64,000 nucleotides of DNA from Dictyostelium discoideum (Eukaryota), in assembly GCA_000004695.1 (NCBI GenBank), contig CM000154.2, positions 3,232,001 through 3,296,000 on the forward strand, given 5' to 3'. The number at the start of each line of letters is the position of its first letter. Within the stretch, counting starts at the first letter, position 1. A program made the translations under genes and the position numbers. Under the pieces are notes generated by a model. That model was not told the origin of the DNA, ran no database searches, and saw only the letters and a program-made list of their open reading frames with translations. Positions 2,217 through 55,939 of the stretch are shown in pieces.

Positions 2217-4515
<2,299 letters not shown>

Positions 4516-8700: not shown

Positions 8701-9478
8701 CATTGATTCCACTAAAAATGTAAATCTAAAACGTTCCTTACGAACTTGTTTAAAGTGTGTCATTGCCTCTAGAATCAATTGATAACCTTTCTCTGAGATC
8801 ATACATATCGCTGTCAATATTTCAAATACACTCGATCTTGTATCCGCTTTTGGTGTATCCATTGATGTGATTAACCTAATCATTGAATTGGGTGTTGCTA
8901 TCGCTTTCTCTATACCATACTTTGAGTTTAACAATGATAATAAACATGTTACCGCTAACGATTGTAATATAACATCACTATCCTTTTGACCATTCCTTTC
9001 AATGAATGCTAATACATTCAATAATGCCTCTATACCATTACAATCTATCAATGACTTTGACCATGCTGATGGTTTACTCTGTAATGATGAACATAATTGT
9101 GCCAAAATTTCAATATTTGGTAATAAATTAATTGTATTTACAAAAAATTCTGGTGTATCAACTGCTTTACCTTTCTAAAAAAAAAAAAATAAAAAAAAAT
9201 AAAAAAAAATAAAAAAATAAAAATTTTATATTAATAAAATAATAATATTAGTAATTATAAAATAAAAAAAAAAAAAAAAAAAAACATACATCATCAAATT
9301 TATCAGCTGATTTTGAATTTGTTGAATTATTTCCATCTGGTTGAAGACTTGAATATGCCATAGAATAACGTTTATTTGCTTTGGCTGGTAATGAAGATAA
9401 AAAATCATTCTCTGACTCTGTTGATCCTTTTTCGTCTGAATCTTTATCTTTTTTCTTTCTACCAAAAATTCTATTCAT
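5701..9478 (-). CDS. Diaphanous-related formin (GBD/FH3 - FH1 polyproline - FH2 - DAD). Two exons: 9290-9478 and 5701-9174. A 115-nt GTATGT..TTTTAG intron separates them. The product is about 1220 aa.
   Basis: Exon 1 reads MNRIFGRKKKDK...SADKFDD and ends at a GTATGT donor. Exon 2 begins KGKAVDTPEFFVNTINLLPNIEILAQLCSS. The track's 1134-aa ORF starts at an internal TTG. The FH1 region is PPPAPPAPPPPPMMGGGPPPPPPPPMMGGGGPPPPPPPP. FH2 covers the region after FH1 (ANAPKFTVSKPTTKVKQFQW...). The C-terminal DAD-like segment is GGMVEDIMQSVRDGDAFKQRRRLKG. Confidence 0.8.
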
Positions 9479-11536: not shown

Positions 11537-12102
11537 CATTAATTAATTTCAAAAAAAAAAATATCTAAAAGTTGCCAAATAATCATTATGGCTACACTTC
11601 CCCAAAAAGCCAAAAAAAAAAAAAAAAAAAAAAAAATGTAACATCATCATTTTTGCAAACATAATCATTACGATAAATTTAATTTCAAAATTTCACACTT
11701 TTAAAAACAAAAATAAAAATAAAAATAAATAAAAAATAAAATAAAATCTGACACCAACAAAAAAAAAAAAAAATAAATTTTTTATTTCATTTTATTTTTG
11801 ATTTGGTTCAATCAAAAAATATAAATAATTGAATTCATTATGATATAATTTTATTTATTTCTAATATGATTTTAGTAATAGAGTACTCAAAAACACACTA
11901 AATGACATAAAATATTAAAAAAATATATATATATATTTTTAGATTTGTTTTAATAAATAAAAATAAAAATTAAAAAATAAAAATAATAAAAAAAATAATA
12001 AAATAAAAGGTATTGATACAACATTTGGCATTTTTTTTTTTATTTTTAGAAAGTGTTGTTTTTTTTTGGTTTTTTTTTTTTTTTTTTTTGAAAGGTGGGG
12101 TT

Positions 12103-12140: not shown

Positions 12141-12427
12141 TTATAACCAGGTTTTGTATAAGTGAAGGTAATAGTAGGAGTTGCTTTAATTTGTATCGAA
12201 TCAGACTCGCAAACTATATTTGAGCCATATTTATTCGATCTAAAACCGATAGAGGCATTTGGGGTAACTCCTTGATTAGAGTTTTTGCTTAAAATAAGAT
12301 TTTTTAAATTATCTGTTTGAAAAAAAAAAAAAAAAAAAAGAAAGTTATTATTTAAGTTATTTCTTATTACAGTTAAAAATATTTTTTATAAAGCACATCT
12401 TTTTAGAACATATTTACCAACAATCAT
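12131..12427 (-). CDS. Hypothetical small protein of 63 aa with two exons. Exon 1 is a 10-nt ATGATTGTTG at about 12418-12427. A GTAAAT..(T)n..AAACAG intron follows. Exon 2 is about 12131-12312.
   Basis: The predicted product is MIV|DNLKNLILSKNSNQGVTPNASIGFRSNKYGSNIVCESDSIQIKATPTITFTYTKPGYNKT*. Exon 2 is a G+C-elevated island that ends in a TAA followed by poly(A). A poly-pyrimidine tract plus AG sits immediately upstream. A tiny first exon is typical for this genome. Confidence 0.25.
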
Positions 12428-13689: not shown

Positions 13690-13706
13690 TAGTGAGAATC
13701 GAACCC
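13690..13706 (-). promoter_or_regulatory. External B-box (duplicated B-box motif) downstream of tRNA-Glu.
   Basis: The reverse complement is AGGGTTCGATTCTCACT, about 25 nt beyond the tRNA terminator. It matches the B-box consensus GGTTCGAnTCC. In D. discoideum, ex-B boxes are a known feature 3' of many tRNA genes. Confidence 0.35.
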
Positions 13707-13732: not shown

Positions 13733-13804
13733 CTCCCCATTCGGGAATCGAACCCGAGGTACCAGTGTGAAAGACTAGAGTGTTACCGACTACACCAATG
13801 AGGA
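13733..13804 (-). tRNA. tRNA-Glu (anticodon TTC).
   Basis: The reverse complement reads TCCTCATTGGTGTAGTCGGTAACACTCTAGTCTTTCACACTGGTACCTCGGGTTCGATTCCCGAATGGGGAG. It has a 7-bp acceptor stem and a GTGTAGTCGGTAACAC D-arm. The anticodon loop is CTTTCAC. The T-arm is GGGTTCGATTCCC. An oligo-T terminator follows. Confidence 0.8.
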
Positions 13805-26177: not shown

Positions 26178-27305
26178 TTAAGATGAAATATAATTTCTTA
26201 CAATGTTTACAGTATTAGGAATTGAATCAATTATTAGTTGTTGTTTAATATCATATAAATACAACGATTCAACACTATCTGGTAATATACCTGGTGTTAA
26301 TTTTTGATTGAATCCATCAAATAAATGGACATGAGTTACAGTATTAGGAATTGAACCAATTATTAATTCTTTTTTAATATTACCTATATACAACCATTTA
26401 ACGCTATCTGGTAATATACCTGGTGTTAATTTTTGATTGAATCCATCTTCAAAACAGACACTCGTTACAGTATTAGGAATTGAACCAATCATTAATTCTT
26501 GTTTAATATCATATAAATACAACGATTCAACACCATCTGGTAATATACCTGGTGTTAATATTTGATTGAATCCATCTAAGAGCATTACACTTGATGGTAA
26601 TTGATTTTTTTTTAATTTTGATAAAATATCACAATTGTCTTTGAATGCTATACAATCCTTATTATCTCCCCATGAAAGTCTATCTGTATTAATATAAAAT
26701 TTTAAATCATAATCTAAAATTGGTAATTAGAATAATGATTTAAAATTGTCAATGAGAAAAATTTTAAAATTTTTAATATGCATATTAACAAAACTTACAC
26801 TTAATAAATTCATTGTTATTTTTATCGATTTCTATTTTGAATCTATCATTACTTTTATTTAGGGAATAAATTGATTTTAAATTATTTTTAATATCATCAA
26901 TTATTTGATTATTGAAATGAATGATTTGATTATCGTATTCATTTAATTTATTTGAATTATTGATATTATTATTATTATTTAATACTATTAATGATTGTTG
27001 ATATTGTTTAATAATTTTGATTGTATCCCTATCAATAATAAAATCATCTCCATTATCATATATTTGTTGGTCATTAAATTTTAAAATTTCATTTAATTTT
27101 TCAATGGTTGTAATAATTTCATTTTCATTTTCATTTTCATTTTTATTTTCATTTTTATTATTATTATTATTAATTATAGTTGAAAGTATTTGATTATCAT
27201 TATTGATTGAAGAAGTTATAATTGTATTTATTAATGTATTATTTTCAAAGGTTGTTTGTAATTGTTTTTTAATATCTAATTCTATGATTGAAATGATATG
27301 AATTT
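26178..27305 (-). pseudogene. 5'-truncated copy (F0) of the B-box/FNIP family. It has three FNIP double repeats and part of the coiled-coil exon. The B-box region is missing.
   Basis: ORF 26178-26585 holds the FNIP units and ends ...VNIVRNYISS. The upstream coiled-coil exon at 26800-27300 matches paralog sequence (IERIE...[11 protein letters not shown]) but stops matching at about 27305. That is 200 bp from the tRNA-Met pseudo-copy. Confidence 0.5.
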
Positions 27306-27521
27306 TTAAAATTTTTTTTTTAAATTTTTTTTATTTTCACAATAGATTTTAATGCAAAAAACAGTTTTTCTTTTTTATTATACCATGGTTTTAAAATGCT
27401 ATTTATATAAACCAATACAGAAATATAAAAAGATTTAACTTTTTTGTGGGTTGGAAAAATTTATAATAAAAAGCTTTATGCAAAAAAGCTGGCGGACCAA
27501 TTTTTTTCAAAAAATCAACAT

Positions 27522-27572
27522 GTCAGGTTGAGTCGGTTGGGTAGTGCGTAGGTCTCATGATCATAGCCCAAC
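27522..27572 (+). pseudogene. Degenerate 5' half of a tRNA-Met gene (partial duplicate).
   Basis: atcaacatGTCAGGTTGagtcGgttggGtagTGCGTAGGTCTCATgATC... matches the first 50 nt of the intact tRNA-Met 165 bp downstream. The match includes about 12 nt of 5' flank. The fragment lacks the T-arm. Confidence 0.4.
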
Positions 27573-27686
27573 TTTGAAATAACGCGGTTTACAACATTTA
27601 CAAAATCATTCTTAAAAAAAAAGTTGGATAACGCAATTAATTTTTTTAAAACTAATAGTGAAAATTTTTTTTTAAATCATCAACAT

Positions 27687-27759
27687 GTCAGGTTGGCTCA
27701 GTTGGTAGAGCGTAGGTCTCATAATCCTAAGGTCCAGAGTTCGATCCTCTGACTTGACA
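27687..27759 (+). tRNA. Elongator tRNA-Met (anticodon CAT).
   Basis: GTCAGGTTGGCTCAGTTGGTAGAGCGTAGGTCTCATAATCCTAAGGTCCAGAGTTCGATCCTCTGACTTGACA. The acceptor stem GTCAGGT/ACTTGAC contains one G-T pair. The D-arm is GCTCAGTTGGTAGAGC. The anticodon loop is CTCATAA. The T-arm is CAGAGTTCGATCCTCTG. A T-run follows. Confidence 0.8.
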
Positions 27760-27790
27760 TTCATTTTTTGTGAAGAAGTCCCTAAAATCA

Positions 27791-27803
27791 AGGGATCGAC
27801 TCC
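27791..27803 (+). promoter_or_regulatory. Putative external B-box downstream of tRNA-Met, overlapping the TRE3 insertion site.
   Basis: GGGATCGACTCCC lies about 32 nt past the tRNA 3' end. It resembles the B-box consensus GGTTCGAnTCC. Confidence 0.3.
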
Positions 27804-27810
27804 CATTTAA
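27798..27810 (+). repeat. Target-site duplication of the TRE3 element, left copy. The right copy is at 33125-33137.
   Basis: GACTCCCATTTAA matches at 13 of 13 positions at both ends. The left copy directly precedes the 5' UTR. The right copy directly follows the A13 tail. Reconstructed empty site: ...agggatcGACTCCCATTTAActactcgg... Confidence 0.6.
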
Positions 27811-27965
27811 ATTTTTTAACGAAAAACGAAAAAAGAAATAAACGAGAATTTATACATATAATAAATAAATCACTGTTATATCTTCACCGCCACATTCATT
27901 CCTCTTAATTTTACCCTTTTTTTGCTCATTAAAGCAAGGGCTATCGTCCTATATACTTTTCAACA

Positions 27966-29174
27966 ATGGCTGATGATCACTCAACTGAATTACAGTTAAA
28001 TCATACAGATAACAACACAACCAATACAAATAACACCTCCACAACCTCAACAACAAAAAACAAAAGTGCAAAAATCGACACACCTAAAAAACAAACCCCA
28101 ACAAACCAACTCTCACTAAACAAAGGACTTGATAATCAATTAGATATCATTGCACCTCCATCAATCACAAGACCACTCTCTTTCTTAGAAAAAAACAATA
28201 ACACCATCAACATTAAGTGTTACTTTAATCAACCACACATCCGTGAAGAATTAACCTCAAAAGATGACACAAGAATTCAACAAATTCACAAAAACATTCA
28301 CAAACTCTTCGAAGTTATACTGTCGCCATCAGCATTCAAAATAATTGGTGCAACTGCCTTCGTAAATTGCAACGTTGATAAATTAACTTCAATAATCAAC
28401 CTTCAAAACCAACTTGCACTAAATATCGACAAACTCAACTATAGATTCGATATATCATCAAATGATTATGCAATCATTAAAACATTCATTAAAACGTACT
28501 CACCCAAACATGCAAACGATGCAATTACAAACAACCTCACTAAATTCACCAGTTGTACATCAATTGAATCATTTACTGTCACATACTCATATGCTGTTGC
28601 GTTTAAAAGCTACATTATAACATACCATCTAATTGATCACACACACAACATTGTTGATCAAAAGATCGAACAACCATCTGGTATCACAAGATATATCAAA
28701 GCTGCAACACGTAGTGTCACTAAACACAAAATTCAACATGCAAAAAATGCAGATATGGCAACAACTATAAAAAATGCTATCACAAACCCAAACATGAACA
28801 AAAACAATCAACCACCAAAAAACAACATTAACACCCCACCAATCAACGAAATTGCAAATTCCAATCGCAATAAAAACTCACTTCAAAATAGTGGTTCAAA
28901 AGCTATACTAAATGAATCACTTGATATTAACAATCAATCCCAAAACAATAATGAAATTTCACACAAAAGTGATTCTTCAAATAATAATAACGGGAAAAAC
29001 TCATTATCAATGAGCAATCCAACCGATCCAACAATTGTACCACAAAAACCTCTACAATCTCAACCAAACAAACCAAGTGCACCAACTCCAAATCCAATAA
29101 ATACAAGAAGAAGCAGCAATGCCCTGACTACACAACCAGTCAATACTGGTGCTGCCAAACCTAGTAAGGTATGA
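27966..29174 (+). CDS. TRE3-like ORF1 (402 aa), with a Thr/Asn/Pro-rich and basic C-terminus.
   Basis: It starts at an ATG and is immediately followed by ORF2. The stop of ORF1 overlaps the ORF2 start (ATGA). Confidence 0.7.
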   Translation: MADDHSTELQLNHTDNNTTNTNNTSTTSTTKNKSAKIDTPKKQTPTNQLSLNKGLDNQLDIIAPPSITRPLSFLEKNNNTINIKCYFNQPHIREELTSKDDTRIQQIHKNIHKLFEVILSPSAFKIIGATAFVNCNVDKLTSIINLQNQLALNIDKLNYRFDISSNDYAIIKTFIKTYSPKHANDAITNNLTKFTSCTSIESFTVTYSYAVAFKSYIITYHLIDHTHNIVDQKIEQPSGITRYIKAATRSVTKHKIQHAKNADMATTIKNAITNPNMNKNNQPPKNNINTPPINEIANSNRNKNSLQNSGSKAILNESLDINNQSQNNNEISHKSDSSNNNNGKNSLSMSNPTDPTIVPQKPLQSQPNKPSAPTPNPINTRRSSNALTTQPVNTGAAKPSKV

Positions 29175-32100
29175 GCTCAAAAATCAACTTTATAACATGG
29201 AATTGTAGAGGATTCACTGAAAACGCAAACAATCAACACAATTCCTACCAAAAAGCTGTTGACACACTACAACTACTTATATCAAAACTTCCACCTCGTC
29301 CAACAATCTCAATACTCACTGAACTCAATTCATCACCATTACAACTTAAACATGATTTTCCCGATCACATCATCTCTGTCACCAAAAGAGGAAATGGTGT
29401 AATAATCATTAACCATAACCCAAACACACTCAAACTCAAACACATATCAACAATTGATGGTAGAGCTATTTTAGCAGACGTTATATTTCCAAATCAATTA
29501 CCAATTGGTATTCTTGGAATTTACGCACCAGCATCAAATAATACCATCAAAAAGAATTCATATGCAACTTCACTACAAACACTTCTCCACAACCACTCAA
29601 CAAACCCAATACCAAACCAATCCCAACATGTATCTATTATCGCAGGAGATTTCAACTGTATCCACAACGACAATTCACTATTAGATGATATTATCCAATC
29701 CTACACATACCAACACCATCTAATTGATCAAGGTGAATTTAAAAACACTCCAACTCATACACATGGTAACAGATTAGATAGAATATATACCCAATACAAT
29801 AGAATAGACCCTGAAAATATATATACACAAGTCCACCAAATTCCATCTTCATTATCAGATCATAATCCAATATCAACAACAATTTCTTCACCTTTTCAAA
29901 TAAATAAACATAAGAAAAGATGGATATTATCACCTGGTACTGCAAATGACCATGAAGCAATCAATATTATCAATCATTTAATAACTAATCACAATAACAC
30001 ATCAATCAATCAATTTACAAACTGGTCAAAAGTAAAATCAAAAATTATTAAAACTCTAAAAAACTATCAATATAACAAAGACAAACAAACTCAACGTGCA
30101 AAACAAATACTATTAGAAAAAGCAGGAAAATTCAAACATCTTGAAGAACAATGCATCGCTGAATACAATATTATATGTAACAAAAACAAATTACATCAAA
30201 ACCACACAAACATATTAAAAAAACATATAAATGGAGAAATACCTAGCAAGTATCTATCAGCAATACTAAACAAAAGATCAAAAGATGCAAAAATTGAATC
30301 AATCCAATATGGCAACATCATTACATCCGACCCCGACCAAATTGAAAATGCGTTTGTTGAATTCTACACAAATCTATATAGCTTACAAATATGTTGTCCA
30401 ATTACTCACCAGCTCATGCTAAACACATGGCCCATCATAAAAAATGAATATTGGAATGGTTTAGACTCACCATTTATACAAGATGAAGTTGAAGCTGCAA
30501 TTAAAACCTGTAACCCCAACAAATCACCCGGTCCAGATGGCGTTACAAATGCATTCTACATTAATCATTTAAACCAAGTTAAACCAATTCTCACTACATT
30601 ATTCAACGATATACTAGAAAATCCTCACCACATCACAACAGAATTCACCGAAGGTCTTATACACACAATTTACAAGAAAGGCAACCCCTTACTCATATCA
30701 AATCGTCGTCCCATTACACTTCTTAACACTGATTACAAGATCCTCTCAAAAGTAATCAATGCACGTCTTCTGAGAATACTTCCTTTCATCATCAACAACA
30801 ACCAAACTGGTTTCGTACCCCACAGATTCATCATAGACAACATCATCAACATCAATGAATTAATAAACTACCTCAAATCTAAAAACCTCCCTGGTATCAT
30901 CACACTATTTGACTTCTTTAAAGCATTTGATTCTATCTCTCACGATAGCATTAAAAGAACATTAATTCATATTGGAATACCAATAAAATTAATAAATTTA
31001 ATCCACAAGCTATTATCTGACTCACAAGCAAAAATTTCAATTAATGGTAAAACGACCAGAAAATTCGATATTAAAAGAGGTGTAAAACAAGGTGACCCAA
31101 TCTCAGCCACTTTATTTGTAATTGTAATTGAAATATTAGCAAGAACAATAAATGCAGACAATTCAATAATTGGATTACCAATTTCACCCAATCCACAAAT
31201 TAAAATCAAATTTACCCAATTTGCAGACGACTCTACAACATACAACATCAACTACGAACAACAACAACAATCAATAATCAAACATTTCGATAATTTCTGC
31301 GCTTCAACATCATCATCTTTAAATTTTGACAAAAGTGCAATTATAGAAATCAACCCCCACAAAATCACTGATAAACACTTAATAAACAACATTCCACAAT
31401 CAAAAAGAATTCCAATAACCAAAAAAGATCAATCAGAAAGAGTTCTTGACTATTTCTTTAATCATAATGGTTTACATAGGAAATTACCAGAAACAATGAA
31501 AACACTGATTAAATCATTAGTGCTATGGAAAACTATTGGTACAACATTAAAAACAAAAACAACCATCATAAACACCTACTCACTATCACCAATAACATAT
31601 TTATCATACCTTGAAGAATTTACAAAAGATGAAGAAATTCAAATTAATAAATTAATCTCATGGTTTATGAATTCTCCCGCAAATTCTGAATCACCAACTC
31701 TCAATACCAATTCCATTGAAAACAACACATCAACCATCCATTCACGTGCAAAAATACCTTTGATGTGTTATGATAGATCATTAAAACCATTAAAAGAAGG
31801 TGGTTGGGGTATGTGGAATATACAATTACGACAAGTTGCTCAAAAGATTTGGATATACAACAGATTTTTACAAATGCATAAATCTGCAAACAATTCAATA
31901 TACATGATAAGTTGGATGGATCAAATCATCAACAAATCAATCTCTTCTCCATACCTTATAAAAATAAAAAAAGAATGGGAAAACTATGCAACTCAAATTG
32001 GACATCTAAAAGATAAAGTTCAAATCCTACAACCAATATTAACAAAAAACCAACCCTCTCAAACATTAAACACAAATAATATTTCACTACCACCAACACT

Positions 32101-33001
32101 CAAAGAAATCTACTCGACAATACTAAACAATCACCAATGCAAATCAAAAGACTATATTGGCAAGAAATATTCAGATCTACTTCTTACTCCGCACCAACAA
32201 TCAATACAATTATTATGGAAATACACATACGACCAACTTTTTGTCAAAATTCAAAAATTAAAAGATCCAAAAGGCCGTGATACAATGCAAAGATTCCATG
32301 CTAGATGTCTTCCGATTAATCATCTACACAACAAAGTTTGCCCCATTTGCAACAATGAAATGAATAATGATCCCTATGGTCATTTGTTTTTCAATTGTCA
32401 GCACACAATCAACTCCATTAACCACGACAAATTAAAATATTTTATATATAAAAATTGCAATGGAAACAAAAACTGGTCACTAACAAAAAACCAAACAACA
32501 AAATTATACACACTCATCTATAAACCACAAACAAACAACAAAGCATTTAAACCAGATCCAACTATCAATATTAATTTTCATTTTGCAGAAAACGCACAAT
32601 ATAAAAAATACAGGTTCAACTGGAATTATATAAACACAAATCTTGATCTAGTCAGAACACATGCATATTGGAACATAATCTCATTAGTTATTCACCAAAT
32701 ATGGATATGGTTATGCAAATCATTATTTGACATCAATATAACTCAATCAATTGATAATTGGAACAACCAAATAAACAACACAACACTAGATTATGATATA
32801 TTAAAATCAAAATGGCACAAGCTAATAAGATTGGAATATTCAAGAACTTTATCAAACTTTAACCAATACTCAATTAAAAACAACCTCACAAAAACTCAAA
32901 AAGAAACCCAATGGTCTGAAACCATCAAAAAATTTAAAAAAGAATGGAGCATAAACACAAATGAACCAATTCCAACAATTACACCACCAATTAATTATTA
33001 A
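29171..33001 (+). CDS. TRE3-like ORF2 (1276 aa): APE-type endonuclease, reverse transcriptase and a C-terminal Cys/His motif.
   Basis: The N-terminus reads ITWNCRGF...SDHNPIS, the EEP endonuclease. The RT block is ...PGPDGV...FADDSTTY (FADD equals the YxDD box). The Cys/His motif is CPICNNEMNNDPYGHLFFNCQH. Confidence 0.85.
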   Translation: MSSKINFITWNCRGFTENANNQHNSYQKAVDTLQLLISKLPPRPTISILTELNSSPLQLKHDFPDHIISVTKRGNGVIIINHNPNTLKLKHISTIDGRAILADVIFPNQLPIGILGIYAPASNNTIKKNSYATSLQTLLHNHSTNPIPNQSQHVSIIAGDFNCIHNDNSLLDDIIQSYTYQHHLIDQGEFKNTPTHTHGNRLDRIYTQYNRIDPENIYTQVHQIPSSLSDHNPISTTISSPFQINKHKKRWILSPGTANDHEAINIINHLITNHNNTSINQFTNWSKVKSKIIKTLKNYQYNKDKQTQRAKQILLEKAGKFKHLEEQCIAEYNIICNKNKLHQNHTNILKKHINGEIPSKYLSAILNKRSKDAKIESIQYGNIITSDPDQIENAFVEFYTNLYSLQICCPITHQLMLNTWPIIKNEYWNGLDSPFIQDEVEAAIKTCNPNKSPGPDGVTNAFYINHLNQVKPILTTLFNDILENPHHITTEFTEGLIHTIYKKGNPLLISNRRPITLLNTDYKILSKVINARLLRILPFIINNNQTGFVPHRFIIDNIININELINYLKSKNLPGIITLFDFFKAFDSISHDSIKRTLIHIGIPIKLINLIHKLLSDSQAKISINGKTTRKFDIKRGVKQGDPISATLFVIVIEILARTINADNSIIGLPISPNPQIKIKFTQFADDSTTYNINYEQQQQSIIKHFDNFCASTSSSLNFDKSAIIEINPHKITDKHLINNIPQSKRIPITKKDQSERVLDYFFNHNGLHRKLPETMKTLIKSLVLWKTIGTTLKTKTTIINTYSLSPITYLSYLEEFTKDEEIQINKLISWFMNSPANSESPTLNTNSIENNTSTIHSRAKIPLMCYDRSLKPLKEGGWGMWNIQLRQVAQKIWIYNRFLQMHKSANNSIYMISWMDQIINKSISSPYLIKIKKEWENYATQIGHLKDKVQILQPILTKNQPSQTLNTNNISLPPTLKEIYSTILNNHQCKSKDYIGKKYSDLLLTPHQQSIQLLWKYTYDQLFVKIQKLKDPKGRDTMQRFHARCLPINHLHNKVCPICNNEMNNDPYGHLFFNCQHTINSINHDKLKYFIYKNCNGNKNWSLTKNQTTKLYTLIYKPQTNNKAFKPDPTININFHFAENAQYKKYRFNWNYINTNLDLVRTHAYWNIISLVIHQIWIWLCKSLFDINITQSIDNWNNQINNTTLDYDILKSKWHKLIRLEYSRTLSNFNQYSIKNNLTKTQKETQWSETIKKFKKEWSINTNEPIPTITPPINY

Positions 33002-33451
33002 TTACCTAATCTAAAATAACATACTATTTTAAATTCACAAAAACTAAAAAACCTAAAATAAATAAATAAAAATAACATACTAATTGTATACTACAATAGT
33101 TTATTTATATCAAAAAAAAAAAAAAGACTCCCATTTAACTACTCGGATTGTAATCTATTTAATAATTCATCATATTGCAAACACAGCAATAATTTTTAAT
33201 CCATAATACACTATATTTTAAAATTGAAATTAAATAACCCATAATGCACTATGTTTTAAAATTGAAACTCAAATATTAAACTATTAATTTATCTTTAATG
33301 GATAATAATAAACATACAATACATTGAGAAATCTATTGGATTAACACTGATTAAACAATATTATAAATAATATAATCAATTAAAACCAATATTTTATGAC
33401 AATCATTCTTTTTTCTGGATAAAGATATAAAACTTTATTTTGTTTAGATTA

Positions 33452-43553: not shown

Positions 43554-45147
43554 CTATTTAATTATTTTTACATTTTTTGAAACATAAGGTTCAATTTGAT
43601 GTTTAAAACTTGTGAAAACTTTTACTTCCTTTACAGTATTAGGAATTGAACCAATTATTAATTCTTGTTTAATATCGCCTAAACGCAACGATTCAACACC
43701 ATCTGGTAATATACCTGGTGTTAATTTTTGATTGAATCCATCTTTTAAAGTAACACGAGTTACAGTATTAGGAATTGAACCAATTATTAATTCTTGTTTA
43801 ATATCGCCTAAATACAAGGATTTAACACCATCTGGTAATATACCTGGTGTTAATTTTTGATTGAATCCATCTTTTAAAGAGACAAGAGTTACAGTATTAG
43901 GAATTGAACCAATCATTAATTCTTGTTTAATATCGCCTAAATACAACAATTTAATACTATCTGGTAATATACCTGGTGTTAATTTTTGATTGAATCCATC
44001 CAATAAAGAGACATGAGTTACAGTATTAGGAATTGAACCAATCATTAATTCTTGTTTAATATCACCTAAATACAAGGATTTAACGCCATCTGGTAATATA
44101 CCAGGTGTTAATTTTTGATTGAATCTATCCAAGAGCATTACAGTAGATGGTAATTGATTTTTTAATTTTGATAAAATATTACAATTGTCTTTGAATGCTA
44201 TACCTTCATTCTCCTTAAATTTAAATGAATCATCCTCTATATAAACATAAAACTTTGAACTATCCCCTATATTTGGTAATTAGAATGATGTAAACATAAT
44301 TTATAAAAAAAACTGTATAAAGCTTACATTTAAAAAATTTATTTTTATTTTCATCGATTTCAATTATAAATCTACAATTATCTAAGGTATAAATTGATTT
44401 TAAATTATTTTTAATATCATCAATTATTTGATTATGGAAATGAATGATTTGATTATCGTATTCATTTAATTTATTTGAATTATTGATATTATTATTATTA
44501 TTTAATACTATTAATGATTGTTGATATTGTTTAATAATTTTAATTGTATCTCTATCAATAATAAAATCTTCTCCATTATCATAAATTTGTTGATCATTAA
44601 ATTTTATAATTTCATTTAATTTTTCAATAGTTGTAGTTCTATCATTTTCATTTTCATTATTATTATTAATTATAGTTGAAAGTATTTGATTATCATTATT
44701 GATTGAAGAAGTTATAATTGTATTTATTAATGTATTATTTTCAAAGGTTGTTTCTAATTGTTTTTTAATATCTAATTCTATGATTGAAATGATATCATGA
44801 ATTTTTTTAATTTCTTTTTTTAATGAATTATTATTAATATCAAATTGTGATTGAATTTCATTGTATTTATCATTTGATTCTTGTAATATTGTTTCATTGA
44901 TTTCTATTCTTTCAATTACTTTTTGGTATATATCATTTTTAAAATTATTCATTAATGAAAGAATATTTGAAGTTGATTCTAATGGATCAGTTTTATGACC
45001 ATGATGTTCACCTTTACTTGATGTACATTGAATACAACATGGTATTAATTTACAATCTAAACAAAAGAATACTATATCTTTATTTGGGTGAAGTGTACAC
45101 TTTTTATTATTATCAATATTATTTATTTTATTATGATTTGAAATCAT
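43554..45147 (-). CDS. B-box zinc finger / coiled-coil / FNIP-repeat protein, copy F2 (about 509 aa). Exons are 44328-45147 and 43554-44266. The intron is 61 nt (GTAAGC..ATAG), phase 1.
   Basis: The B-box reads [51 protein letters not shown]. The coiled-coil is [55 protein letters not shown]. The FNIP exon has 4.5 double repeats and ends KEVKVFTSFKHQIEPYVSKNVKIIK. The track start at 45222 (MVSHIKISGSKFFFFFF) is upstream poly-A read-through. The true ATG is at about 45147. Confidence 0.7.
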
Positions 45148-45906
45148 TGTGTTTGGGATTGGTGTGGATGTAAAAAAAAAAAAAAAAAATTTGGAACCAG
45201 AAATTTTTATATGAGACACCAAAAATAAAAAAAAATAAAAAAAATAAAAATAAAATCGCTTAAAAAATTAAGAAAAACAAAATCTTTTTTTTTTTTTTTT
45301 TTTAAAAAATAAATAAATAATTAAATATTTATATTGTTATTGATAAAAATTTAAAAAAAGGAAAAATATTTTGAATTCAATCGTTAATCATTTTTTTTTT
45401 ATAAAAAAAAAAGATATAATTTAATTATATATACAATGTTTTTTAAATCTCTATTTTTGGAACATTTTAATAGTAAATTAAATTTAAATATGTTTGCTGA
45501 CATTAATATGGCTGCTGAAATTAATATGCATGTAAATTAATATGGATGCTAAAATTAATATGGGACACACTATTGGCAATTTTAAATCACTAAAAAATAT
45601 CATCATGGTACAGCGGATCAATTAAATGGATTTTGTAATTTGAGGGTAAAAACAAATTTACTCAAACCTGGAATTAAATATACCTAAACCCATTCAAATG
45701 TTACCATTTGACGCCATATGGTAGTAAACTACTATTAATCATATTGATTATTTTATTTAAATTTTCAATTAAAACATTACAATGAGCAGTTTTGCGATGA
45801 TTTGCTTTTTTAAAACTCTGTTGGAAAATTATTAATATTTATTATATTTGATGTTATTTCTTCATTTTATCTTGTTTTGTCATGATTAGTAGGTTGGCTG
45901 TACCTG

Positions 45907-46441
45907 TTAACAGTAGTTTCTTACACTCTTTACAGTATTAGGAATTGAACCAATCATTAATTCTTGTTTAATATCACCTAAATACAACCATTCAACACTA
46001 TCTGGTAATATACCTGGTGTTATTTTTTGATTGAATTCATTCAATAAAGAGACACTCGTTACAATATTAGGGATTGATCCAATCTCCAATTCTTGTTTAA
46101 TATCGCCTAAACTCAACCATTTAACACCAACTGGTAAAATGCCTGGTTTTAATCTTTGATTGAATCCATCCAATAAAGAGACATGAGCTACAGTATTAGG
46201 AATTGAGCCAATTATTAATTCTTGTTTAATATCACCTAAATACAAGGATTTAACACCAACTGGTAAAATGCCTGGTGTTAATTTTTGATTGAATCCATCC
46301 AATAGCATTACATTTGATGGTAATTGATTTTTTAATTTTGATGATGAAATATTACAATTGTCTTTGAATGCTATACCTTCATTCTCCTTAATTTTAAATG
46401 AATTACCCTCTATATAAATATAAAACTTTAAATTATCCCCT
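45907..46441 (-). pseudogene. 3' fragment of a B-box/FNIP paralog: three FNIP double repeats plus the intron and exon-1 tail. It fuses at about 46441 to a myotubularin-gene fragment.
   Basis: ORF 45907-46308 reads LLDGFNQKLTPGILP... and ends SVRNYC (the type-II tail, as in F0). Upstream sequence matches the paralog intron, ...ctatataaatataaaactttaaattatcccct. It then switches abruptly to aatgttgattaataactgaagaagtcattg, which is the same as 40547-40580. Confidence 0.5.
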
Positions 46442-46446
46442 AATGT

Positions 46447-46543
46447 TGATTAATAACTGAAGAAGTCATTGTACTATCATTTTTATTTAATCTATCAATA
46501 TCAATTGAATCTTCAATCATACTATTAGTATTGGATTATTTTG

Positions 46544-46594
<51 letters not shown>

Positions 46595-47392
46595 TTGATT
46601 ATTATTATTATTTTGATTATTATTATTATTATTACTAAACATTATAGATTGTGATAAAATATAACTGGAAATGGGAATCTTGTTCTTACACGTGCAAATC
46701 TAGATTGATCCAATAATTTTTCTAAATTACGAGAGAGTTCTGGATGAACGTGTTTATTCTTTTCTTTACATACTTTACATCCTGTCTCTAACTCGTGTTC
46801 AATAAAAATTAAATCTGGTGGGTATGTTGCGCATAATTCACCTTCTTTATTATTGATTAATGATATTTTATAATCTTTTTCAAATAATGTATTTACAATT
46901 TCTTGATATTTAAATAATTCCTTGTTTTTTTGTTTTGTTGTTGTTTTGTTTTAAATTAATTAAATAATAAAAAAAAAAAAAAATTATTTAATATTAATAT
47001 ATATAATTATATAATATTAATAATAATTATTTTAAACTTACTTCATCTCTTTTACCAGGGAATGGTTGTTTATATCTTCTAAAATGAGCAAACATTTCGG
47101 CTAATTCAGATGCCAATGAATCACCACATGCAAGCGAGGGGTTAACTTCAAAAGAGTTCATTGTATTGGCATCGTTTGTCGTATTATCACCATTTGACGA
47201 TATATCTTCAGAGACAACTATAGATGGTTCATCATCGTCATTGCTATTGATTGTGTTATTATTATTATTTGGTATTATTGGTGATATTGGACTTGGAATA
47301 TCTTCATTGTTATTACTATTATTATTATTATTATTATTTACATTTGGTTCATATGATACTTTTTTAAATTGCTTTGGTATATATGTATTTTC

Positions 47393-47434
<42 letters not shown>

Positions 47435-47887
47435 GTTATTGTTATTAGTACAATTATAGCTTTCATTTATTAAAATTTCGGATTTAGAATTTAATATCTC
47501 TTCATTTCTGCTGTTGTTATTATTATTGTCACAACTATTATTATTATTACTATTATTATAGGTTTCATTATTCTCTTCTACAGCAACTGCTTCTTCTAAT
47601 GTTAAATCCATCATGAAAGGAAACGAATTCTCTCTACTTATATTGCAAGTATTATTATTACTACTGCTGTCACTATTATTATTATTATTATTGTTTTTAT
47701 TATTATTATTATTATTATTATTGTTATTATTATTATTATTATTATTACTGCTGTTACTACTACTACCACTACTATCGTTTTCGACAGATTTTTTAGGGGA
47801 TTGTGAACAAGGTGTATTTGAAGGCTTTATTGAAGAAATTAATTGTTCTGTTGTTGAGGATGGTGGTGTGCTAGAGGTAATTACCAT
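46447..47887 (-). pseudogene. Partial duplicate (5' fragment) of the myotubularin-like gene. It holds exon 1 intact, intron 1, and a rearranged piece of exon 2, with internal deletions.
   Basis: 47027-47887 equals 42098-42958, an identical 286-codon exon. 46660-46960 equals 40905-41170. 46447-46660 equals 40547-40765 with the (AAT)n altered. About 135 bp between two gataaa repeats is missing. The copy lacks the catalytic exons. Confidence 0.5.
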
Positions 47888-48630
47888 TTTAATGGATTTG
47901 TTTTTTAATGAGGTGAAAGTAATTGAGCGTATTCCTAGTGTGTGTCTTTTTTTTTTTTTTTTTTTTTTTTTTGGTTTTTTTTTTTTTTTAATTTATTTAT
48001 TATTTTTTTATTTTATTTTTTCTATTTTTTTTTTATATTTTTTATTTAAATTTTTTTTTTTTTTTTTTTTTTTTATTTTGGTTTTTTTTGAGTTAAACTT
48101 AATAAAAAAAAAAAAAATAAAAAAAAAATAAAAAATAAAAATTAAAAAAAAAAAAAAAAAAAAAATAAAATAAAATAAAAAAAAAATAAAGATTAACCTA
48201 AAAAAAGAAATGATTATTTAAATATCCCTCTTTTTTTTTTTAAGATTTAATTTTATATGTATTCAATATTTTTTATTTTAAAATTTAAATATGTTAAAAC
48301 ACTCTTTTTTTTTTTTTTTTTTTTTTTTTTTCAAGATTCAATTAAACACTGCCCTCTAAAGGAATAAAAGTAACAGTAATGTAAGTATTAAAAAAATTTT
48401 CAATATTATGCAAATTTCCATTATACTATCCTGATTTTTTTGAAATTTCAAAAAAAAAAAATATCTTTTTACAAATTATTATTCAAGTTATCTAATAAAA
48501 ATAGGCAATTTTCAATGACTAAAAAGGAAATACCATAAAGTTAAGATAGAATTTCCCAATTAAATACATAATTAAGGAATTGATTTTTTTTTTTTTTTTT
48601 TTTATTGGAATTGTTTAATTTAACCTAATG

Positions 48631-50518
48631 TTATTTTTCTGAATTCTTTTTAATTATTTTTACATTTTTTGAAACATAAGGTTCAATTTGATGTTTAAAA
48701 CTTGTGGAAACATTTACTTCCTTTACAGTATTAGGAATTGAACCAATTATTAATTCTTGTTTAATATCGCCTAAATTCAACGATTCAAAACCATCTGGTA
48801 ATATACCTGGTGTTAATTTTTGATTGAATCCATCTTCTAAAGTGACACGAGTTACAGTATTAGGAATTGAACCAATTATTAATTCTTGTTTAATATCACC
48901 TAAATCCAACGATTCAACACTATCTGGTAGAATACCTGGTGTTAATTTTTGATTGAATCCATCTTCTAAAGAGACATTCTTTACAGTATTAGGAATTGAA
49001 CCAATCATTAATTCTTGTTTAATATCACCTAAATCCAACGATTCAACACCTTCTGGTAGAATATCTGGTGTTAATATTTGATTGAATCCATCTTCTAAAG
49101 AGACAAGAGTTACAGTATTAGGAATTGAACCAATCATTAATTCTTGTTTAATATCACCTAAATACAACCATTTAACACTATCTGGTAATATACCTGGTGT
49201 TAATTTTTGATTGAATCCATCTTTTAAAGAGACAAGAGTTACAGTATTAGGAATTGATCCAATAATTAATTCTTGTTTAATATCACCAAAAAACAACCAT
49301 TCTACGCCATTTGGTAAAATACCTGGTGTCAATTTTTGATTGAATCCATCCAATAAAGAGACACGAGTTACAGTATTAGGAATTGAACCAATTATTAATT
49401 CTTGTTTAATATCACCTAAATACAAGGATTTAACGCCATCTGGTAATATACCAGGTGTTAATTTTTGATTGAATCCATCCAATAGCATTACATTTGATGG
49501 TAATTGATTTTTTAATTTTGATAAAATATTACAATTGTTTTTGAATGCTGTACCTTCATTCTCCTTAAATTTAAATGAATCACCCTCTATATAAACATAA
49601 AACTTTAAATTATCCCCTATATTTGGTTATTAGAATGATGTAAACATAATTTATAAAAAAAACTGTATAAAGCTTACATTCAAAAAATTCATTATTATTT
49701 TCATCGATTTCAATTTTAAATCTACAATTATCTAAGGTATAAATTGATTTTAAATTATTTTTAATATCATCAATTATTTGATTATGGAAATGAATGATTT
49801 GATTATCATATTCATTTAATTTATTTGAATTATCGATATTATTATTATTATTTAATACTATTAATGATTGTTGATATTGTTTAATAATTTTAATTGTATC
49901 TCTATCAATAATAAAATCTTCTCCATTATCATAAATTTGTTGATCATTAAATTTTATAATTTCATTTAATTTTTCAATGGTTGTAATTCTATCATTTTCA
50001 TTTTCATTTTCATTTTCATTTTTATTATTTTTATTATTAATTATAGTTGAAAGTATTTGATTATCATTATTGATTGAAGAAGTTATAATTGTATTTATTA
50101 ATGTATTATTTTCAAAGGTTTTTTCTAATTGTCTTTTAATATCTAATTCTATGATTGAAATGATGTCATGAATTTTTTTAATTTCTTTTCTTAATGAATT
50201 ATTATTATTATCAAATTGTGATTGAATTTCATTGTATTTATCATTTGATTCTTGTAATATTGTTTCATTGATTTCTATTCTTTCAATTACTTTTTGATAT
50301 ATATCATTTTTAAAATTATTCATAAATGAAAGAATATTTGAAGTTGATTCTAATGGATCAGTTTTATGACCATGATGTTCACCTTTACTTGATGTACATT
50401 GAATACAACATGGTATTAATTTACAATCTAAACAAAAGAATACTATATCTTTATTTGGGTGAAGTGTACATTTTATATTATTATCAATATTATTTATTGT
50501 ATTATGATTTGATACCAT
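48631..50518 (-). CDS. B-box / coiled-coil / FNIP-repeat protein, copy F3. Exons are 49678-50518 and 48631-49616. It has about 6.5 FNIP double repeats.
   Basis: [24 protein letters not shown]...B-box...coiled-coil. The intron is GTAAGC..ATAG. The FNIP exon (285 codons in the track) ends ...KEVNVSTSFKHQIEPYVSKNVKIIKKNSEK. Confidence 0.7.
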
Positions 50519-51154
50519 TGTGTTTGGGATTGGTGTGGATGTATTGAGAACCGGTTCTCAATCAATCGCACAACCTATTTATCAAACTAATCAAGGTATA
50601 AAAATGCAACTATAAATGTTACTATGTAAATACAACCATTCAACACTATCTGGTAATATATGTGGTGTTAGTTTTTGATTGAATCCATTTTTTAAATAGA
50701 CATGTGTCCCATGCCAAAATAAAACGAAACTTCATCTGTTAGTAACAAAAGAGTAAGCAGAAGAGTCAATAATTAAAATAAAAAATATTATTTTAATTTT
50801 TTTTTTTTTTTTTTTTTTTTATTTTTTTTTATTTTTTTTTATTTTTAATTTTTTATTTATAATTTTTTTTTTTTGTGAGCCGGCTAGACATAAATGAATA
50901 ATAAAAAAATATATACCAACTAAAAAAAAAAGAAATGAAAATAAATTATAAAATTAATAATAAAAATAAAAAGATAAAAATAAATAAAAGATATAAATAA
51001 AATAATATGAAAATTTTTTTTTTTTTTTTTATATTATTATAATTATTTTTTTTTAGTTGATATATATTTTTTTAATAATAATTTTAGTGCTAAAATTTTG
51101 TTTATATTTGAGATGATTATTAATTAAATGACTTTGACTTTTTTTTTTTTTCTA

Positions 51155-51321
51155 TGCCAAAATTACCATATTAATTTCAGCAGCCATATTAATTTCGGCA
51201 GCTATGTACATGCTGAAATTAATATGGCTGCTGAAATTAATACGGTAATTTTGGCAGACGTAAGTCCCATGCCAAAATTAATATGGCTGCTGAAATTAAT
51301 ATGGTAATTTTGGCATGGGAC
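51155..51321. repeat. Nested inverted-repeat (hairpin or MITE-like) structure built from ATTAATATGGCTGCTGAAATTAATA units.
   Basis: A 48-nt arm TGCCAAAATTACCATATTAATTTCAGCAGCCATATTAATTTCGGCAGC, then a TATGTACAT centre, then its reverse complement. A second palindrome follows: GTCCCATGCCAAAATTA...TAATTTTGGCATGGGAC. Related motif copies sit at 45495-45575. GTCCCATGCCAAAAT recurs at 50705. Confidence 0.6.
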
Positions 51322-51949
51322 AAATAAATAAGGAATAAATTATTTAAAAAAAATAAAAATTCTTATATTTTAATATTTTTTATTTAAATATTTATTGTAC
51401 ACCCATTATTTTTTATCATTTTATTATAGTTTTTAATAATATACAATATCATATATTAAACTATAATTTAATGTTTTAAAAAATGAGAAATTACAATAGT
51501 ATTATTTCCTATTAATTGTTGTATATTATTAAATTATAGTTTTATGTTTTAAAAAATGAGAAATTACAATAGTATATTGTGGTAAATCAATAAATTTTTT
51601 ATAATTTAATGACAAATTAATATTCAATTTTAATTAAATAATTTTAGATTTTATCAATTTTTAATTTATTAAAATATATTTTTATTATGGCCAGATTCTT
51701 TTTTATTATTTTATGATAATGTGTGATTAATTATTAATTAGAAATTGATATTAGTTTGTTAAAAATTTTATTACATTATAATATCGTTTCTTAAAATATG
51801 AGTTTTTGCGGTAGTTTAATTTCTCACAAAATAGTAAAATTTCTTAGGTTTTTTTTCTCTGGTGAATACATAATTAAGGAATTGATTTTTTTTTTTTTTT
51901 TTTTTTTATTGGAATTGTTTAATTTAACCTAATGTTATTTTTCTGAATT

Positions 51950-54211
51950 CTATTTAATTATTTTTACATTTTTTGAAACATAAGGTTCAATTTGATGTTT
52001 AAAACTTGTGGAAACATTTACTTCCTTTACAGTATTAGGAATTGAACCAATTATTAATTCTTGTTTAATATCGCCTAAATTCAACGATTCAACACCATCT
52101 GGTAATATACCTGGTGTTAATTTTTGATTGAATCCATCTTCTAAAGTGACACTCTTTACAGTATTAGGAATTGAACCAATTATTAATTCTTGTTTAATAT
52201 CACCTAAATCCAACGATTCAACACTATCTGGTAGAATACCTGGTGTTAATTTTTGATTAAATCCATCTTCTAAAGAGACATGAGTTACAGTATTAGGAAT
52301 TGAACCAATCATTAATTCTTGTTTAATATCACCTAAATACAACGATTCAACACCTTCTGGTAGAATACCTGGTGTTAATTTTTGATTGAACCTATCTTCT
52401 AACGAGACATTCGTTACAGTATTAGGAATTGAACCAATTATTAATTCTTGTTTAATATCGCCTAAATACAACAATCCAACACTTTCTGGTAATATACGTG
52501 GTGTTAATTTTTGATTGAATCCATCTTTTAAAGAGACACTCGTTACAGTATTAGGAATTGAACCAATTATTAATTCTTGTTTAATATCACCTAAATACAA
52601 CAATCCAACACTTTCTGGTAAAATACCTGGTGTTAATATTTGATTGAATCCATCTTCTAAAGAGACAAGAGTTACAGTATTAGGAATTGAACCAATCATT
52701 AATTCTTGTTTAATATCACCTAAATACAACAATTTAACACTATCTGGTAATATACCTGGTGTTAATTTTTGATTGAATCCATCTTTTAAAGAGACAAGAG
52801 TTACAGTATTAGGAATTGATCCAATAATTAATTCTTGTTTAATATCACCTAAATCCAACAATTTAATACTATCTGGTAATATACCTGGTGTTAATTTTTG
52901 ATTGAATCCATCTTTTAAAGTGACACGAGTTACAGTATTAGGAATTGAACCAATCATTATTTCTTGTTTAATATCACCTAAATACAACCATTCAACACTA
53001 TCTGGTAAAATACCTGGTGTTAATTTTTGATTGAATCTATCCAATAAAGAGATATGAGTTACAGTATTAGGAATTGAACCAATCATTAATTCTTGTTTAA
53101 TATCACCTAAATGCAACAATTTAACACTATCTGGTAATATACATGGTGTTAATTTTTGATTGAATCCATCTTTTAAAGAGACACGAGTTACAGTATTAGG
53201 AATTGAACCAATTATTAATTCTTGTTTAATATCGCCTAAATCCAACAATTTAATACTATCTGGTAATATACCTGGTGTTAATTTTTGATTGAATTCATCT
53301 TTTAAAGATACACGAGTTACAGTATTAGGAATTGAACCAATCATTATTTCTTGATTAATATCACCTAAATACAACCATTCAACACTATCTGGTAATATAC
53401 CTGGTGTTAATTTTTGATTGAATCCATCTTTTAAAGAGACAAGAGTTACAGTATTAGGAATTGAACCAATTATTAATTCTTGTTTAATATCACCTAAATA
53501 CAAGGATTTAACACCATCTGGTAATATACCTGGTGTTAATTTTTGATTGAATCCATCTTTTAAAGAGACATGGATTACAGTATTAGGAATTGAACCAATC
53601 ATTAATTCTTGTTTAATATCACATAAATCCAACAATTTAATACTATCTGGTAATATACCTGGGGTTAATTTTTGATTGAATCTATCCAATAAAGAGATAT
53701 GAGTTACAGTATTAGGAATTGAACCAATTATTAATTCTTGTTTAATATCGCCTAAATCCAACAATTTAATACTATCTGGTAATATACCTGGTGTTAATTT
53801 TTGATTGAATTCATCTTTTAAAGATACATGAGTTACAGTATCAGGAATTGAACCAATTATTAATTCTTGTTTAATATCACCTAAATACAAGGATTTAACA
53901 CAATATGGCAATATACCTGGTGTTAATTTTTGATTGAATCTATCCAATAAAGAGATATGGATTACAGTATTAGGAATTGAACCAATCATTAGTTCTTGTT
54001 TAATATCACCTAAATACAAGGATTTAATACTATCTGGTAATATGCATGGTGTTAATATTTGATTGAATCCATCCAATAAAGAGACATGGATTACAGTATT
54101 AGGAATTGAACCAATTATTAATTCTTGTTTAATATCACCTAAATACAAGGATTCAACGCCATCTGGTAATATACCAGGTGTTAATTTTTGATTGAATCCA
54201 TCCAATAGCAT
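51950..54211. repeat. Tandem array of about 17.5 x 129-bp coding repeats (FNIP double units) with high nucleotide identity between units.
   Basis: The unit ...gaatccatc...ggtgttaatttttgattgaatccatc... recurs every 129 nt over 2.26 kb. Shorter arrays of the same unit occur in F1, F0, F2, F3 and F5. Confidence 0.8.
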
Positions 54212-55220
54212 TACAGTTGATGGTAATTGATTTTTTAATTTTGATAAAATATTACAATTGTTTTTGAATGCTGTACCTTCATTCTCCTTAAATTTAAATG
54301 AATTACCCTCTATATAAACATAAAACTTTAAATTATCCCCTATATTTGGTAATTAGAATGATGTAAACATAATTTATAAAAAAAACTGTATAAAACTTAC
54401 ATTTAAAAAATTTATTATTATTTTCATCGATTTCAATTATAAATCTACAATTATTTAAGAAATAAATTGATTTTAAATTATTTTTAATATCATCAATTAT
54501 TTGATTATGGAAATGAATGATTTGATTATCGTTTTCATTTAATTTATTTGAATTATTGATATTATTATTATTATTTAATACTATTAATGATTGTTGATAT
54601 TGTTTAATAATTTTAATTGTATCTCTATCAATAATAAAATCTTCTCCATTATCATAAATTTGTTGATCATTAAATTTTATAATTTCATTTAATTTTTCAA
54701 TAGTTGTAGTTCTATCATTTTCATTTTCATTATTATTATTAATTATAGTTGAAAGTATTTGATTATCATTATTGATTGAAGAAGTTATAATTGTATTTAT
54801 TAATGTATTATTTTCAAAGGTTGTTTCTAATTGTTTTTTAATATCTAATTCTATGATTGAAATGATATCATGAATTTTTTTAATTTCTTTTTTTAATGAA
54901 TTATTATTAATATCAAATTGTGATTGAATTTCATTGTATTTATCATTTGATTCTTGTAATATTGTTTCATTGATTTCTATTCTTTCAATTACTTTTTGAT
55001 ATATATCATTTTTAAAATTATTCATTAATGAAAGAATATTTGAAGTTGATTCTAAGGGATCAGTTTTATGACCATGATGTTCACCTTTACTTGATGTACA
55101 TTGAATACAACATGGTATTAATTTACAATCTAAACAAAAGAATACTATATCTTTATTTGGGTGAAGTGTACATTTTATATTATTATCAATATTATTTATT
55201 GTATTATGATTTGATACCAT
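51950..55220 (-). CDS. B-box / coiled-coil / FNIP-repeat protein, copy F4, with a greatly expanded FNIP array. Exons are 54401-55220 and 51950-54339. The intron is 61 nt (GTAAGT..ATAG).
   Basis: The same N-terminal architecture as F2 and F3. The FNIP exon is a 753-codon open frame, about 17.5 x 43-aa double repeats (129-bp DNA units). Confidence 0.7.
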
Positions 55221-55824: not shown

Positions 55825-55939
55825 GTATGAAATTATTGTAAAATATTTGATGTTATTTCTTCATTTTATCTTGTTTTGCCATATGATTAGTGGGTTGGTT
55901 GTACCTGTTAATGGTAGTTTCTTGAATAGGAAATTCTTC

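Follow-up and report, generated by a model that had tools for sequence, protein, structure and literature searches.

Where does a retrotransposon that targets tRNA genes land relative to the B boxes in and behind its target gene, and from which of them might the position be measured? We considered this question at a locus on chromosome 5 of Dictyostelium discoideum, in a stretch of 64,000 nucleotides (nt) of AT-rich DNA (contig CM000154.2, positions 3,232,001 to 3,296,000; G+C about 22%) that we call the window. An initial annotation, made from the letters alone, had placed a full-length TRE3-type retrotransposon here, downstream of a tRNA-Met(CAT) gene. Our analysis agrees, and we put at roughly 93% the probability that the locus holds an intact TRE3 copy, most likely of the TRE3-B subfamily, which inserted behind tRNA-Met(CAT) by target-primed reverse transcription (TPRT) in the AX4/NC4 lineage.

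A complete TRE3 element behind a tRNA-Met gene

The element starts 51 nt past the tRNA-Met gene on the same strand (Table 1), at the distance and in the orientation first annotated; Rfam and ARAGORN agree on the position of the tRNA gene to within one base at either end. BLAST comparison with copies at two other loci (L003 and L004) gives 98–99% DNA identity from element position 10 or 19 through the last base, 5315. The first ~9–20 nt do not align to the other copies (ATTTTTTAACGAAAAACG... versus ...AAGTAAAAAAACCGAAAAAAC...) and would represent the variable 5' junction that is usual for non-long-terminal-repeat (non-LTR) elements. Across 27811-33125 the base composition shifts in a retroelement-like manner, being A-rich with a C-over-G strand bias. 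Architecture, identity to other copies and same-strand downstream position all bear out the annotation of a full-length TRE3-type element, and the copy is full-length with both open reading frames (ORFs) intact.

The ORF2 start codon overlaps the ORF1 stop codon TGA as ATGA at 29171-29174, and ORF2 carries the APE-type endonuclease, reverse transcriptase (RT) and Cys/His modules, all in keeping with the initial annotation. The endonuclease motifs WNCRG, TELN, GDFN and SDHNP are all found in ORF2, the RT motif FADD occupies residues 684-687 (nt 31220-31231) and the Cys/His module has the pattern CX2CX10HX4C; a Pfam search of ORF1 returned no recognisable domain. The terminal A run, first counted as 13 bases, is 14 bases long. 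We found no slippery heptamer upstream of the ATGA overlap. A -1 frameshift has been proposed for TRE3-A (PMC5911963); since the heptamer is missing here, termination-reinitiation at the ATGA seems, we infer, at least as likely a route to ORF2 translation. The L003 copy shares the 402-aa ORF1 and the ATGA overlap and has a 1275-aa ORF2. Compared with two sister copies, the window copy shows at least eight private amino-acid changes and a one-codon insertion in ORF2.

From residue 15 to its end, ORF2 is identical to the AX4 gene model DDB_G0289805, copy-private substitutions included, which indicates that this very copy is already present in the AX4 reference genome. The model (P0210, window 27520-33001) is chimeric: its N-terminus (…HQHVRLSRL…HQHVRLAQLVEH…) comes from reading through a pseudo-tRNA and the tRNA-Met gene, and ORF1 and ORF2 are joined by way of predicted introns. 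Gene models in the assembly GCA_054883475.1 are likewise 1596-aa fusions, and at least eight models of that length occur in one assembly. Protein matches of 82–90% identity (P0003-P0008) were considered as a sister subfamily and rejected, tblastn and blastn having traced them to gene-model artefacts of the same family with 98–99% DNA identity.

Table 1. Coordinates of the element, its target gene and the adjoining B boxes in the window
Feature	Position	Strand	Basis or remark
tRNA-Met(CAT) gene, targeted RNA polymerase III (Pol III) gene	27687-27759	+	Rfam RF00005, 64.8 bits; ARAGORN 27686-27760
Internal B-box core GTTCGATCC of tRNA-Met	27739-27747	+	Exact match to GTTCRANYC
T6 run between tRNA-Met and external B (ex-B) box	27764-27769	+	Direct sequence reading
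ex-B box GGATCGACTCC	27793-27803	+	One mismatch to GGTTCRANYCC (10/11 positions)
5' copy of target-site duplication GACTCCCATTTAA, 13 bp	27798-27810	+	Exact repeat
Complete TRE3 element, 5315 bp including A14 tail (5301 bp without tail)	27811-33125	+	
5' untranslated region (UTR)	27811-27965	+	
ORF1, 402 aa	27966-29174	+	
ORF2, 1276 aa	29171-33001	+	-1 frame relative to ORF1
APE-type endonuclease domain, ORF2 aa 8-231	29192-29863	+	Pfam PF03372 Exo_endo_phos, E=1.2e-12
Reverse transcriptase domain, ORF2 aa 502-725	30674-31345	+	Pfam PF00078 RVT_1, E=1.9e-30
Cys/His zinc knuckle CPICNNEMNNDPYGHLFFNC, ORF2 aa 1057-1076	32339-32398	+	CX2CX10HX4C
3' UTR	33002-33111	+	Between ORF2 stop and A run
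Poly(A) tail, A14	33112-33125	+	
3' copy of target-site duplication GACTCCCATTTAA, 13 bp	33126-33138	+	Exact repeat; directly after poly(A) tail

The target-site duplication and its empty sites

The element is bracketed by an exact 13-bp target-site duplication (TSD). The duplication and its 5' copy stand as first annotated, and the 3' copy has to be moved by one base from 33125-33137. The 13-mer occurs exactly twice in the window, against 0.06 matches in shuffles even with one mismatch allowed, and none of 100 shuffles held two matches. Identity ends at 13 bp with no further base on either side, and in the adjoining 50 bp identity falls to 22% and 32%, as chance would give in DNA this rich in A and T.

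We then compared orthologous loci from five assemblies, obtained via cluster members and via protein homologues of the flavin monooxygenase (FMO) gene that adjoins the element (94% of the ORF aligned, 100% identity to DDB_G0289779 of strain AX4). The element is present, with the same TSD, in D. discoideum GCA_054883475.1 (L001; 99.8–100% identical to the window). No element DNA was found in the other four orthologous loci, those of GCA_054859355.1 (L006; ~93% identity), GCA_054859385.1 (L007; ~92–93%), D. cf. discoideum (L008; ~90%) and D. citrinum (L002; ~85%). These four give an in silico answer to the empty-site check that the initial annotation had proposed. In L006, L008 and L002 the tRNA-Met gene lies between the FMO and kinase genes, uninterrupted by a TRE3 element, and the L007 site holds only a retroelement tail of 16 nt plus A17. 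The tRNA-Met gene itself is kept in all five assemblies: the compared stretches are identical in L001 and L006-L008, and the D. citrinum gene differs by one compensatory pair in the acceptor stem.

Taking the element and one repeat copy out of the window gives the reconstructed empty site AAGGGATCGACTCCCATTTAACTACTCGG, to be compared with AAGGGATCGACTCCTATTCAACCAATCG in L006 and AAGGGTTCGATTCCCGTTTAACTCCAATT in L008; the D. citrinum locus was set aside as a base-level empty site, its tRNA flank being too diverged. The reconstructed window is collinear with the empty-site loci across the junction, and in the empty alleles the 13-mer region is single-copy and contiguous with both flanks. This alignment indicates that the flanks were contiguous and the 13-mer single-copy in the ancestral state, and it excludes a segmental duplication. 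The longer flanking homology named in the initial annotation as a possible refutation was thus not encountered.

The L006 and L007 assemblies are labelled D. discoideum yet are 92–93% identical to the window over the FMO gene and 3.4 kb of left flank. By this measure they appear to be distinct lineages rather than AX4/NC4-type strains. One of them holds a TRE family, P0012, that is 58% identical to the presumed TRE3-A family described below.

Family and subfamily

TRE3 elements insert downstream of tRNA genes, sharing their orientation, at 40-150 bp (PMC5911963); the ranges published by subfamily span 14-228 bp overall and 34-188 bp for TRE3-B, with 'about 100 bp' typical (PMC5006619 Table 1). 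The window element follows this rule at the short end of the TRE3-B range, and the L003 copy follows it as well, starting 50-66 nt past a tRNA-Lys gene on the same strand. By published description (PMC5006619, PMC5911963) a TRE3 element also has two ORFs, an ORF2 in the order APE, RT and zinc finger, short UTRs and an oligo(A) tail, all of which the window copy shows. Because both copies lie behind their tRNA gene and are oriented as it is, we assign them to TRE3 and not to TRE5. Several D. discoideum proteins, DDB_G0291958 among them, match ORF2 at 99% identity, and ORF2 falls in the same 90% cluster as GenBank AAD43057.1 / UniProt Q9Y1H5, a D. discoideum 'pol' protein of 1275 aa that bears no subfamily label. 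The initial annotation had named alignment of the ORFs to TRE5 or other families as a refutation, and the outcome of this check favours TRE3.

Next in similarity among the families of the genome comes P0011 (79 cluster members), with 40% ORF2 identity to the window element, and then a third, P0014, with 33%; P0011-family DNA is barely alignable to the element, with 65–73% identity in short patches. Measured from the start of the alignable part, the window copy is 5283-5292 bp long, and a P0011-family copy at locus L005, bounded by a TSD (TAATGCATAA), measures 5231 bp without its tail. The family of the window element has roughly 50 cluster members. The published values are a consensus of 5229 bp and 67 copies for TRE3-A, 5279 bp and 43 copies for TRE3-B, and 4734 bp and 29 copies for TRE3-C (PMC5006619 Table 1). 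From this agreement in length and relative abundance, the window element is probably TRE3-B and the P0011 family its sister TRE3-A. The element thus belongs to a known family and occupies the usual kind of site, and is ordinary in both respects.

Three other readings bear on these conclusions. That the 13-bp repeats match by chance, or mark the borders of a segmental duplication or of a recombination product, is scarcely conceivable: nothing beyond the general AT-richness of the genome speaks for it, and it runs against the chance expectation, the abrupt end of identity between unrelated flanks, the poly(A) tail that abuts the 3' copy and the empty alleles, whose alignment refutes it. There is next to no room, either, for a TRE5 or other non-LTR element that lies near a tRNA gene by chance. 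Such an element would be compatible with the ORF2 domain order, which is common to all TRE elements (PMC5006619), but TRE5 inserts ~50 bp upstream in the opposite orientation (PMC5911963, PMC3159450), contrary to what the element's family shows at both loci, and among the largest repeat families listed (short, low identity) there is no TRE5-A-style UTR module duplicated between the ends. An assignment to TRE3-A (former Tdd-3) has more in its favour and is still unlikely. The family of the element contains many near-identical full-length copies, TRE3-A is the subfamily reported to be richest in them (13; PMC5006619), and the clustered 'pol' entry is unlabelled; against this, the ~5283-5301 bp of the family compare with a consensus of 5229 bp for TRE3-A and 5279 bp for TRE3-B, the sister-family copy at L005 has 5231 bp between its TSDs, and it is the sister family that is the commoner, 79 to roughly 50, as in the published 67 to 43.

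The external B box at the insertion site

External B boxes occur ~41 bp downstream of 66% of tRNA genes (PMC3159450). We defined an ex-B box as a match to the B-box consensus, GTTCRANYC or GGTTCGAATCC-like, ~41 bp downstream of the tRNA coding region, and counted distances to insertions from the G that opens the internal B-box core (27739 in the window). The ex-B box of tRNA-Met lies 33 nt past the tRNA end and starts at +54. Chance would give 3.75 matches to the 11-mer GGTTCRANYCC per window, counting both strands and allowing one mismatch; for the 9-mer core, at the same tolerance, 134 matches compare with 116 expected, which is not significant alone. Because an 11-mer match 33 nt behind a tRNA gene is unlikely by chance, and because L008 shows, at the orthologous site, GGTTCGATTCC without a mismatch, we read the motif as a real, slightly decayed ex-B box, with TFIIIC as its putative ligand. 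In this box A replaces T at the position that corresponds to T54 of the tRNA. The T6 run between gene and box is likely a Pol III terminator, a function suggested by its sequence.

The TSD overlaps the last 6 of the 11 ex-B positions, in line with the overlap with a B-box-like motif that was first annotated. The description of the event as an insertion into the ex-B box holds for these six positions and not for the box as a whole: the complete box stays next to the tRNA gene, and beyond the far end of the element there is a repeat of GACTCC only.

Insertion mechanism and the distance from the internal B box

TPRT is established for APE-type non-LTR elements, and the poly(A)/TSD anatomy leads us to infer it at this locus. 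The ORF2 endonuclease would first have cut the bottom strand within the ex-B box, between 27797 and 27798, and the polyadenylated RNA would have been reverse-transcribed with the nicked DNA as primer. A second cut, in the top strand 13 bp further (between 27810 and 27811), and repair would have given the duplication. The site itself would have been chosen via the Pol III machinery on the tRNA gene, with TFIIIC at a B box.

Five insertion events at three loci allow the position to be compared. The 5' junction lies at +72 for the window element (first nick at +59). Behind tRNA-Lys at L003 it lies at +70 for a full element (first nick +53), at +70 for a 16-nt tail (+58) and at +71 for a second element (+58); the 16-nt tail plus A17 in L007, an independent event at the same tRNA-Met gene, has it at +73 (+62). 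The junction is therefore confined to +70 to +73 and the position of the ex-B box relative to it varies, so that measurement from the internal B box is favoured, in agreement with the published use of either box by TRE3 (PMC5911963). We tentatively propose that the 5' junction of TRE3-type insertions lies at an approximately fixed 70-73 bp from the internal B-box G regardless of local sequence, and that the first nick floats (+53 to +62, with TSDs of 11-17 bp); this possibility is one that we hold with less than even confidence. Such a fixed-distance ruler would presumably act through TFIIIC, and geometry, rather than recognition of the ex-B box, would account for the overlap with that box (start at +54).

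A different account would make the ex-B box itself, bound by TFIIIC, the docking site, with the endonuclease cutting within or beside the ex-B footprint. Several observations are in its favour: the first nick falls inside the ex-B box, the independent retroelement tail in L007 directly follows the same box, the L003 TSDs end where a GGTTCAAATCC motif begins, and according to the literature TRE3 can work from the internal B box or from the external one (PMC5911963). We nonetheless regard it as rather improbable, given that the distance from ex-B box to junction varies (+18 in the window, 0 in L003) and that from the internal B box stays at 70-73. Published ex-B-directed insertions, moreover, lie downstream of the ex-B box and not on it, and the 14 B-box-like nt between the 5' TSD copy and the element in L003 may belong to the insert rather than to the target.

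Some points weigh against our overall account, in which an intact TRE3-B copy was placed by TPRT at a distance set from the internal B box. The ruler is drawn from five events at three loci, three of which share one target, and the role of TFIIIC in TRE3 targeting would be carried over from TRE5-A work and reviews. The subfamily was called from length and abundance only. The empty-site lineages are 7–15% diverged, so polymorphism within D. discoideum proper does not follow from them, and the second carrier, L001, is at 99.8–100% identity probably of the same lineage as the window. Finally, the private changes and the extra codon in ORF2 would leave the present mobility of the copy doubtful, intact ORFs notwithstanding.

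Other insertions at related loci

On the reverse strand of L007, directly downstream of tRNA-Met (12156-12230) and after the same ex-B box, lies the mini-insertion ATAATAAATTAATATC plus A17, flanked by CATTCAACCAA and CACTTAACCAA. It is a retroelement tail 5'-truncated to 16 nt, in a lineage without the full element, and shows repeated use of the same few bases. At L003 (3779-3870 and 9120-9260) three successive insertions behind tRNA-Lys(UUU), namely the full element, the 16-nt tail (here followed by A15) and the second element, reuse the same target with the TSDs TTTTAGTATTACCAAAA, GTATTACCAAAA and GTATTACCAAAAG. At its 5' end the first of these elements is separated from its TSD copy by a perfect B box, GGTTCAAATCCCAG, which may have come by 5' transduction from a source copy that sat behind an ex-B box, or may reflect a 31-bp TSD.

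On the reverse strand of the D. citrinum locus (~11760-12010), downstream of tRNA-Met, we observe a poly(A)-ended insert of ~230 bp between copies of the direct repeat GTGTTAGATTG. Because a B-box-like GGTTCGAGTC lies inside it, this insert may be a retroposon that resembles a short interspersed nuclear element (SINE) or is derived from a tRNA. A separate tail, ...CACAGGT plus A14, lies closer to tRNA-Met.

B-box matches and tRNA genes elsewhere in the window

Matches to GGTTCRANYCC number 53 in the window, against the 3.75 expected. A perfect B box, GGTTCAATTCC, repeats about every 129 bp at 3501-4424, 26218-26486 and 43642-56559; these regions are probably FNIP-repeat genes, FNIP being annotated for the L001 orthologue. 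No TRE DNA was found near the FNIP-region matches within the window. Evidently the B-box consensus alone is insufficient to attract TRE elements, or selection acts against such insertions.

Besides tRNA-Met, the window contains a second genuine tRNA gene, tRNA-Glu(TTC) (13733-13804, minus strand); it has an ex-B box, GGTTCGATTCT (13695-13705, minus strand), 49 nt past its internal B box and has no TRE on either side. An ARAGORN call of tRNA-Ser(GGA) at 7486-7563 was discarded: it runs antisense within a formin ORF (5701-9105; FH2, FH3, GBD), has no Rfam match and is most likely a false positive.

Upstream of tRNA-Met, at 27501-27565, lies a degenerate copy of its 5' flank (-21 to -1) and of tRNA nt 1-44, 165 bp from the intact counterpart (27666-27730) and 85–88% identical to it. 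L006 and L007 show the ancestral upstream flank, which in the window abuts this degenerate copy; 100 bp of unrelated DNA (27566-27665) lie between the copy and the real gene, and the partial duplication is absent from L006, L007 and L008. From its sequence the arrangement has the look of a tRNA gene into which 100 bp inserted, a duplication of 65 bp having restored a complete gene.

Comparison with known elements

The closest match to the window copy is TRE3-B as described by Spaller et al. 2016 (PMC5006619). The two have in common two ORFs, the order of APE, RT and zinc finger in ORF2, a poly(A) tail, a same-orientation position downstream of a tRNA gene at a distance within the published range, and a length within ~5-20 bp of the consensus; the copy is one of several full-length ones. 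It differs from the others in its first ~9-20 nt, one extra ORF2 codon and ~8 private substitutions, which is nothing substantive. TRE3-A (formerly Tdd-3) shares the architecture and the targeting rule, and the presumed TRE3-A family P0011 has the closest ORF2 of any other family in the genome, though at only ~40% identity.

TRE5-A (DRE) is a related non-LTR element of the same host that also targets Pol III genes, uses TPRT and shows variable TSDs and 5' junctions. Unlike the window element, it inserts ~50 bp upstream of tRNA genes and is inverted relative to them, its UTRs are built of A/B/C modules and its ORF1 protein binds TFIIIB; none of these features applies here. Mammalian L1 and other APE-type long interspersed nuclear elements resemble the window element in combining APE, RT and a C-terminal Cys/His motif and in their poly(A) tails, TSDs of 7-20 bp and TPRT. 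L1, however, is without Pol III-gene targeting and its endonuclease prefers TTTT/A, whereas the element's first nick is at GAGTC/GATCC on the bottom strand, with no T-rich primer.

Significance for TRE3 integration

The TRE3 family, the rule by which it chooses targets and the part played by internal and external B boxes are already known, having been described since 1999-2001, reportedly in the work of Szafranski et al. in 1999 and Glöckner et al. in 2001. As this copy is in the AX4 reference and the family and its relation to the B box are in the literature (PMC5911963), the locus has little significance beyond annotation, where the chimeric model DDB_G0289805 should be classed as a transposon instead of a host gene. 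Mild novelty attaches only to the regularity of the 5' junction at +70 to +73, which may already be implicit in the literature.

The locus nevertheless provides a clean occupied/empty pair across Dictyostelium lineages, useful for studies of TRE3 integration, and the constant junction in five events offers a simple hypothesis that is testable genome-wide. If it is true, short-distance insertions would repeatedly cut in or beside ex-B boxes, which lie in the junction zone, and could duplicate half a box or carry B-box-like 5' sequence, as with GGTTCAAATCCCAG in the L003 copy. The window would then be a clean, single-base example of a ruler that starts at the internal B box.

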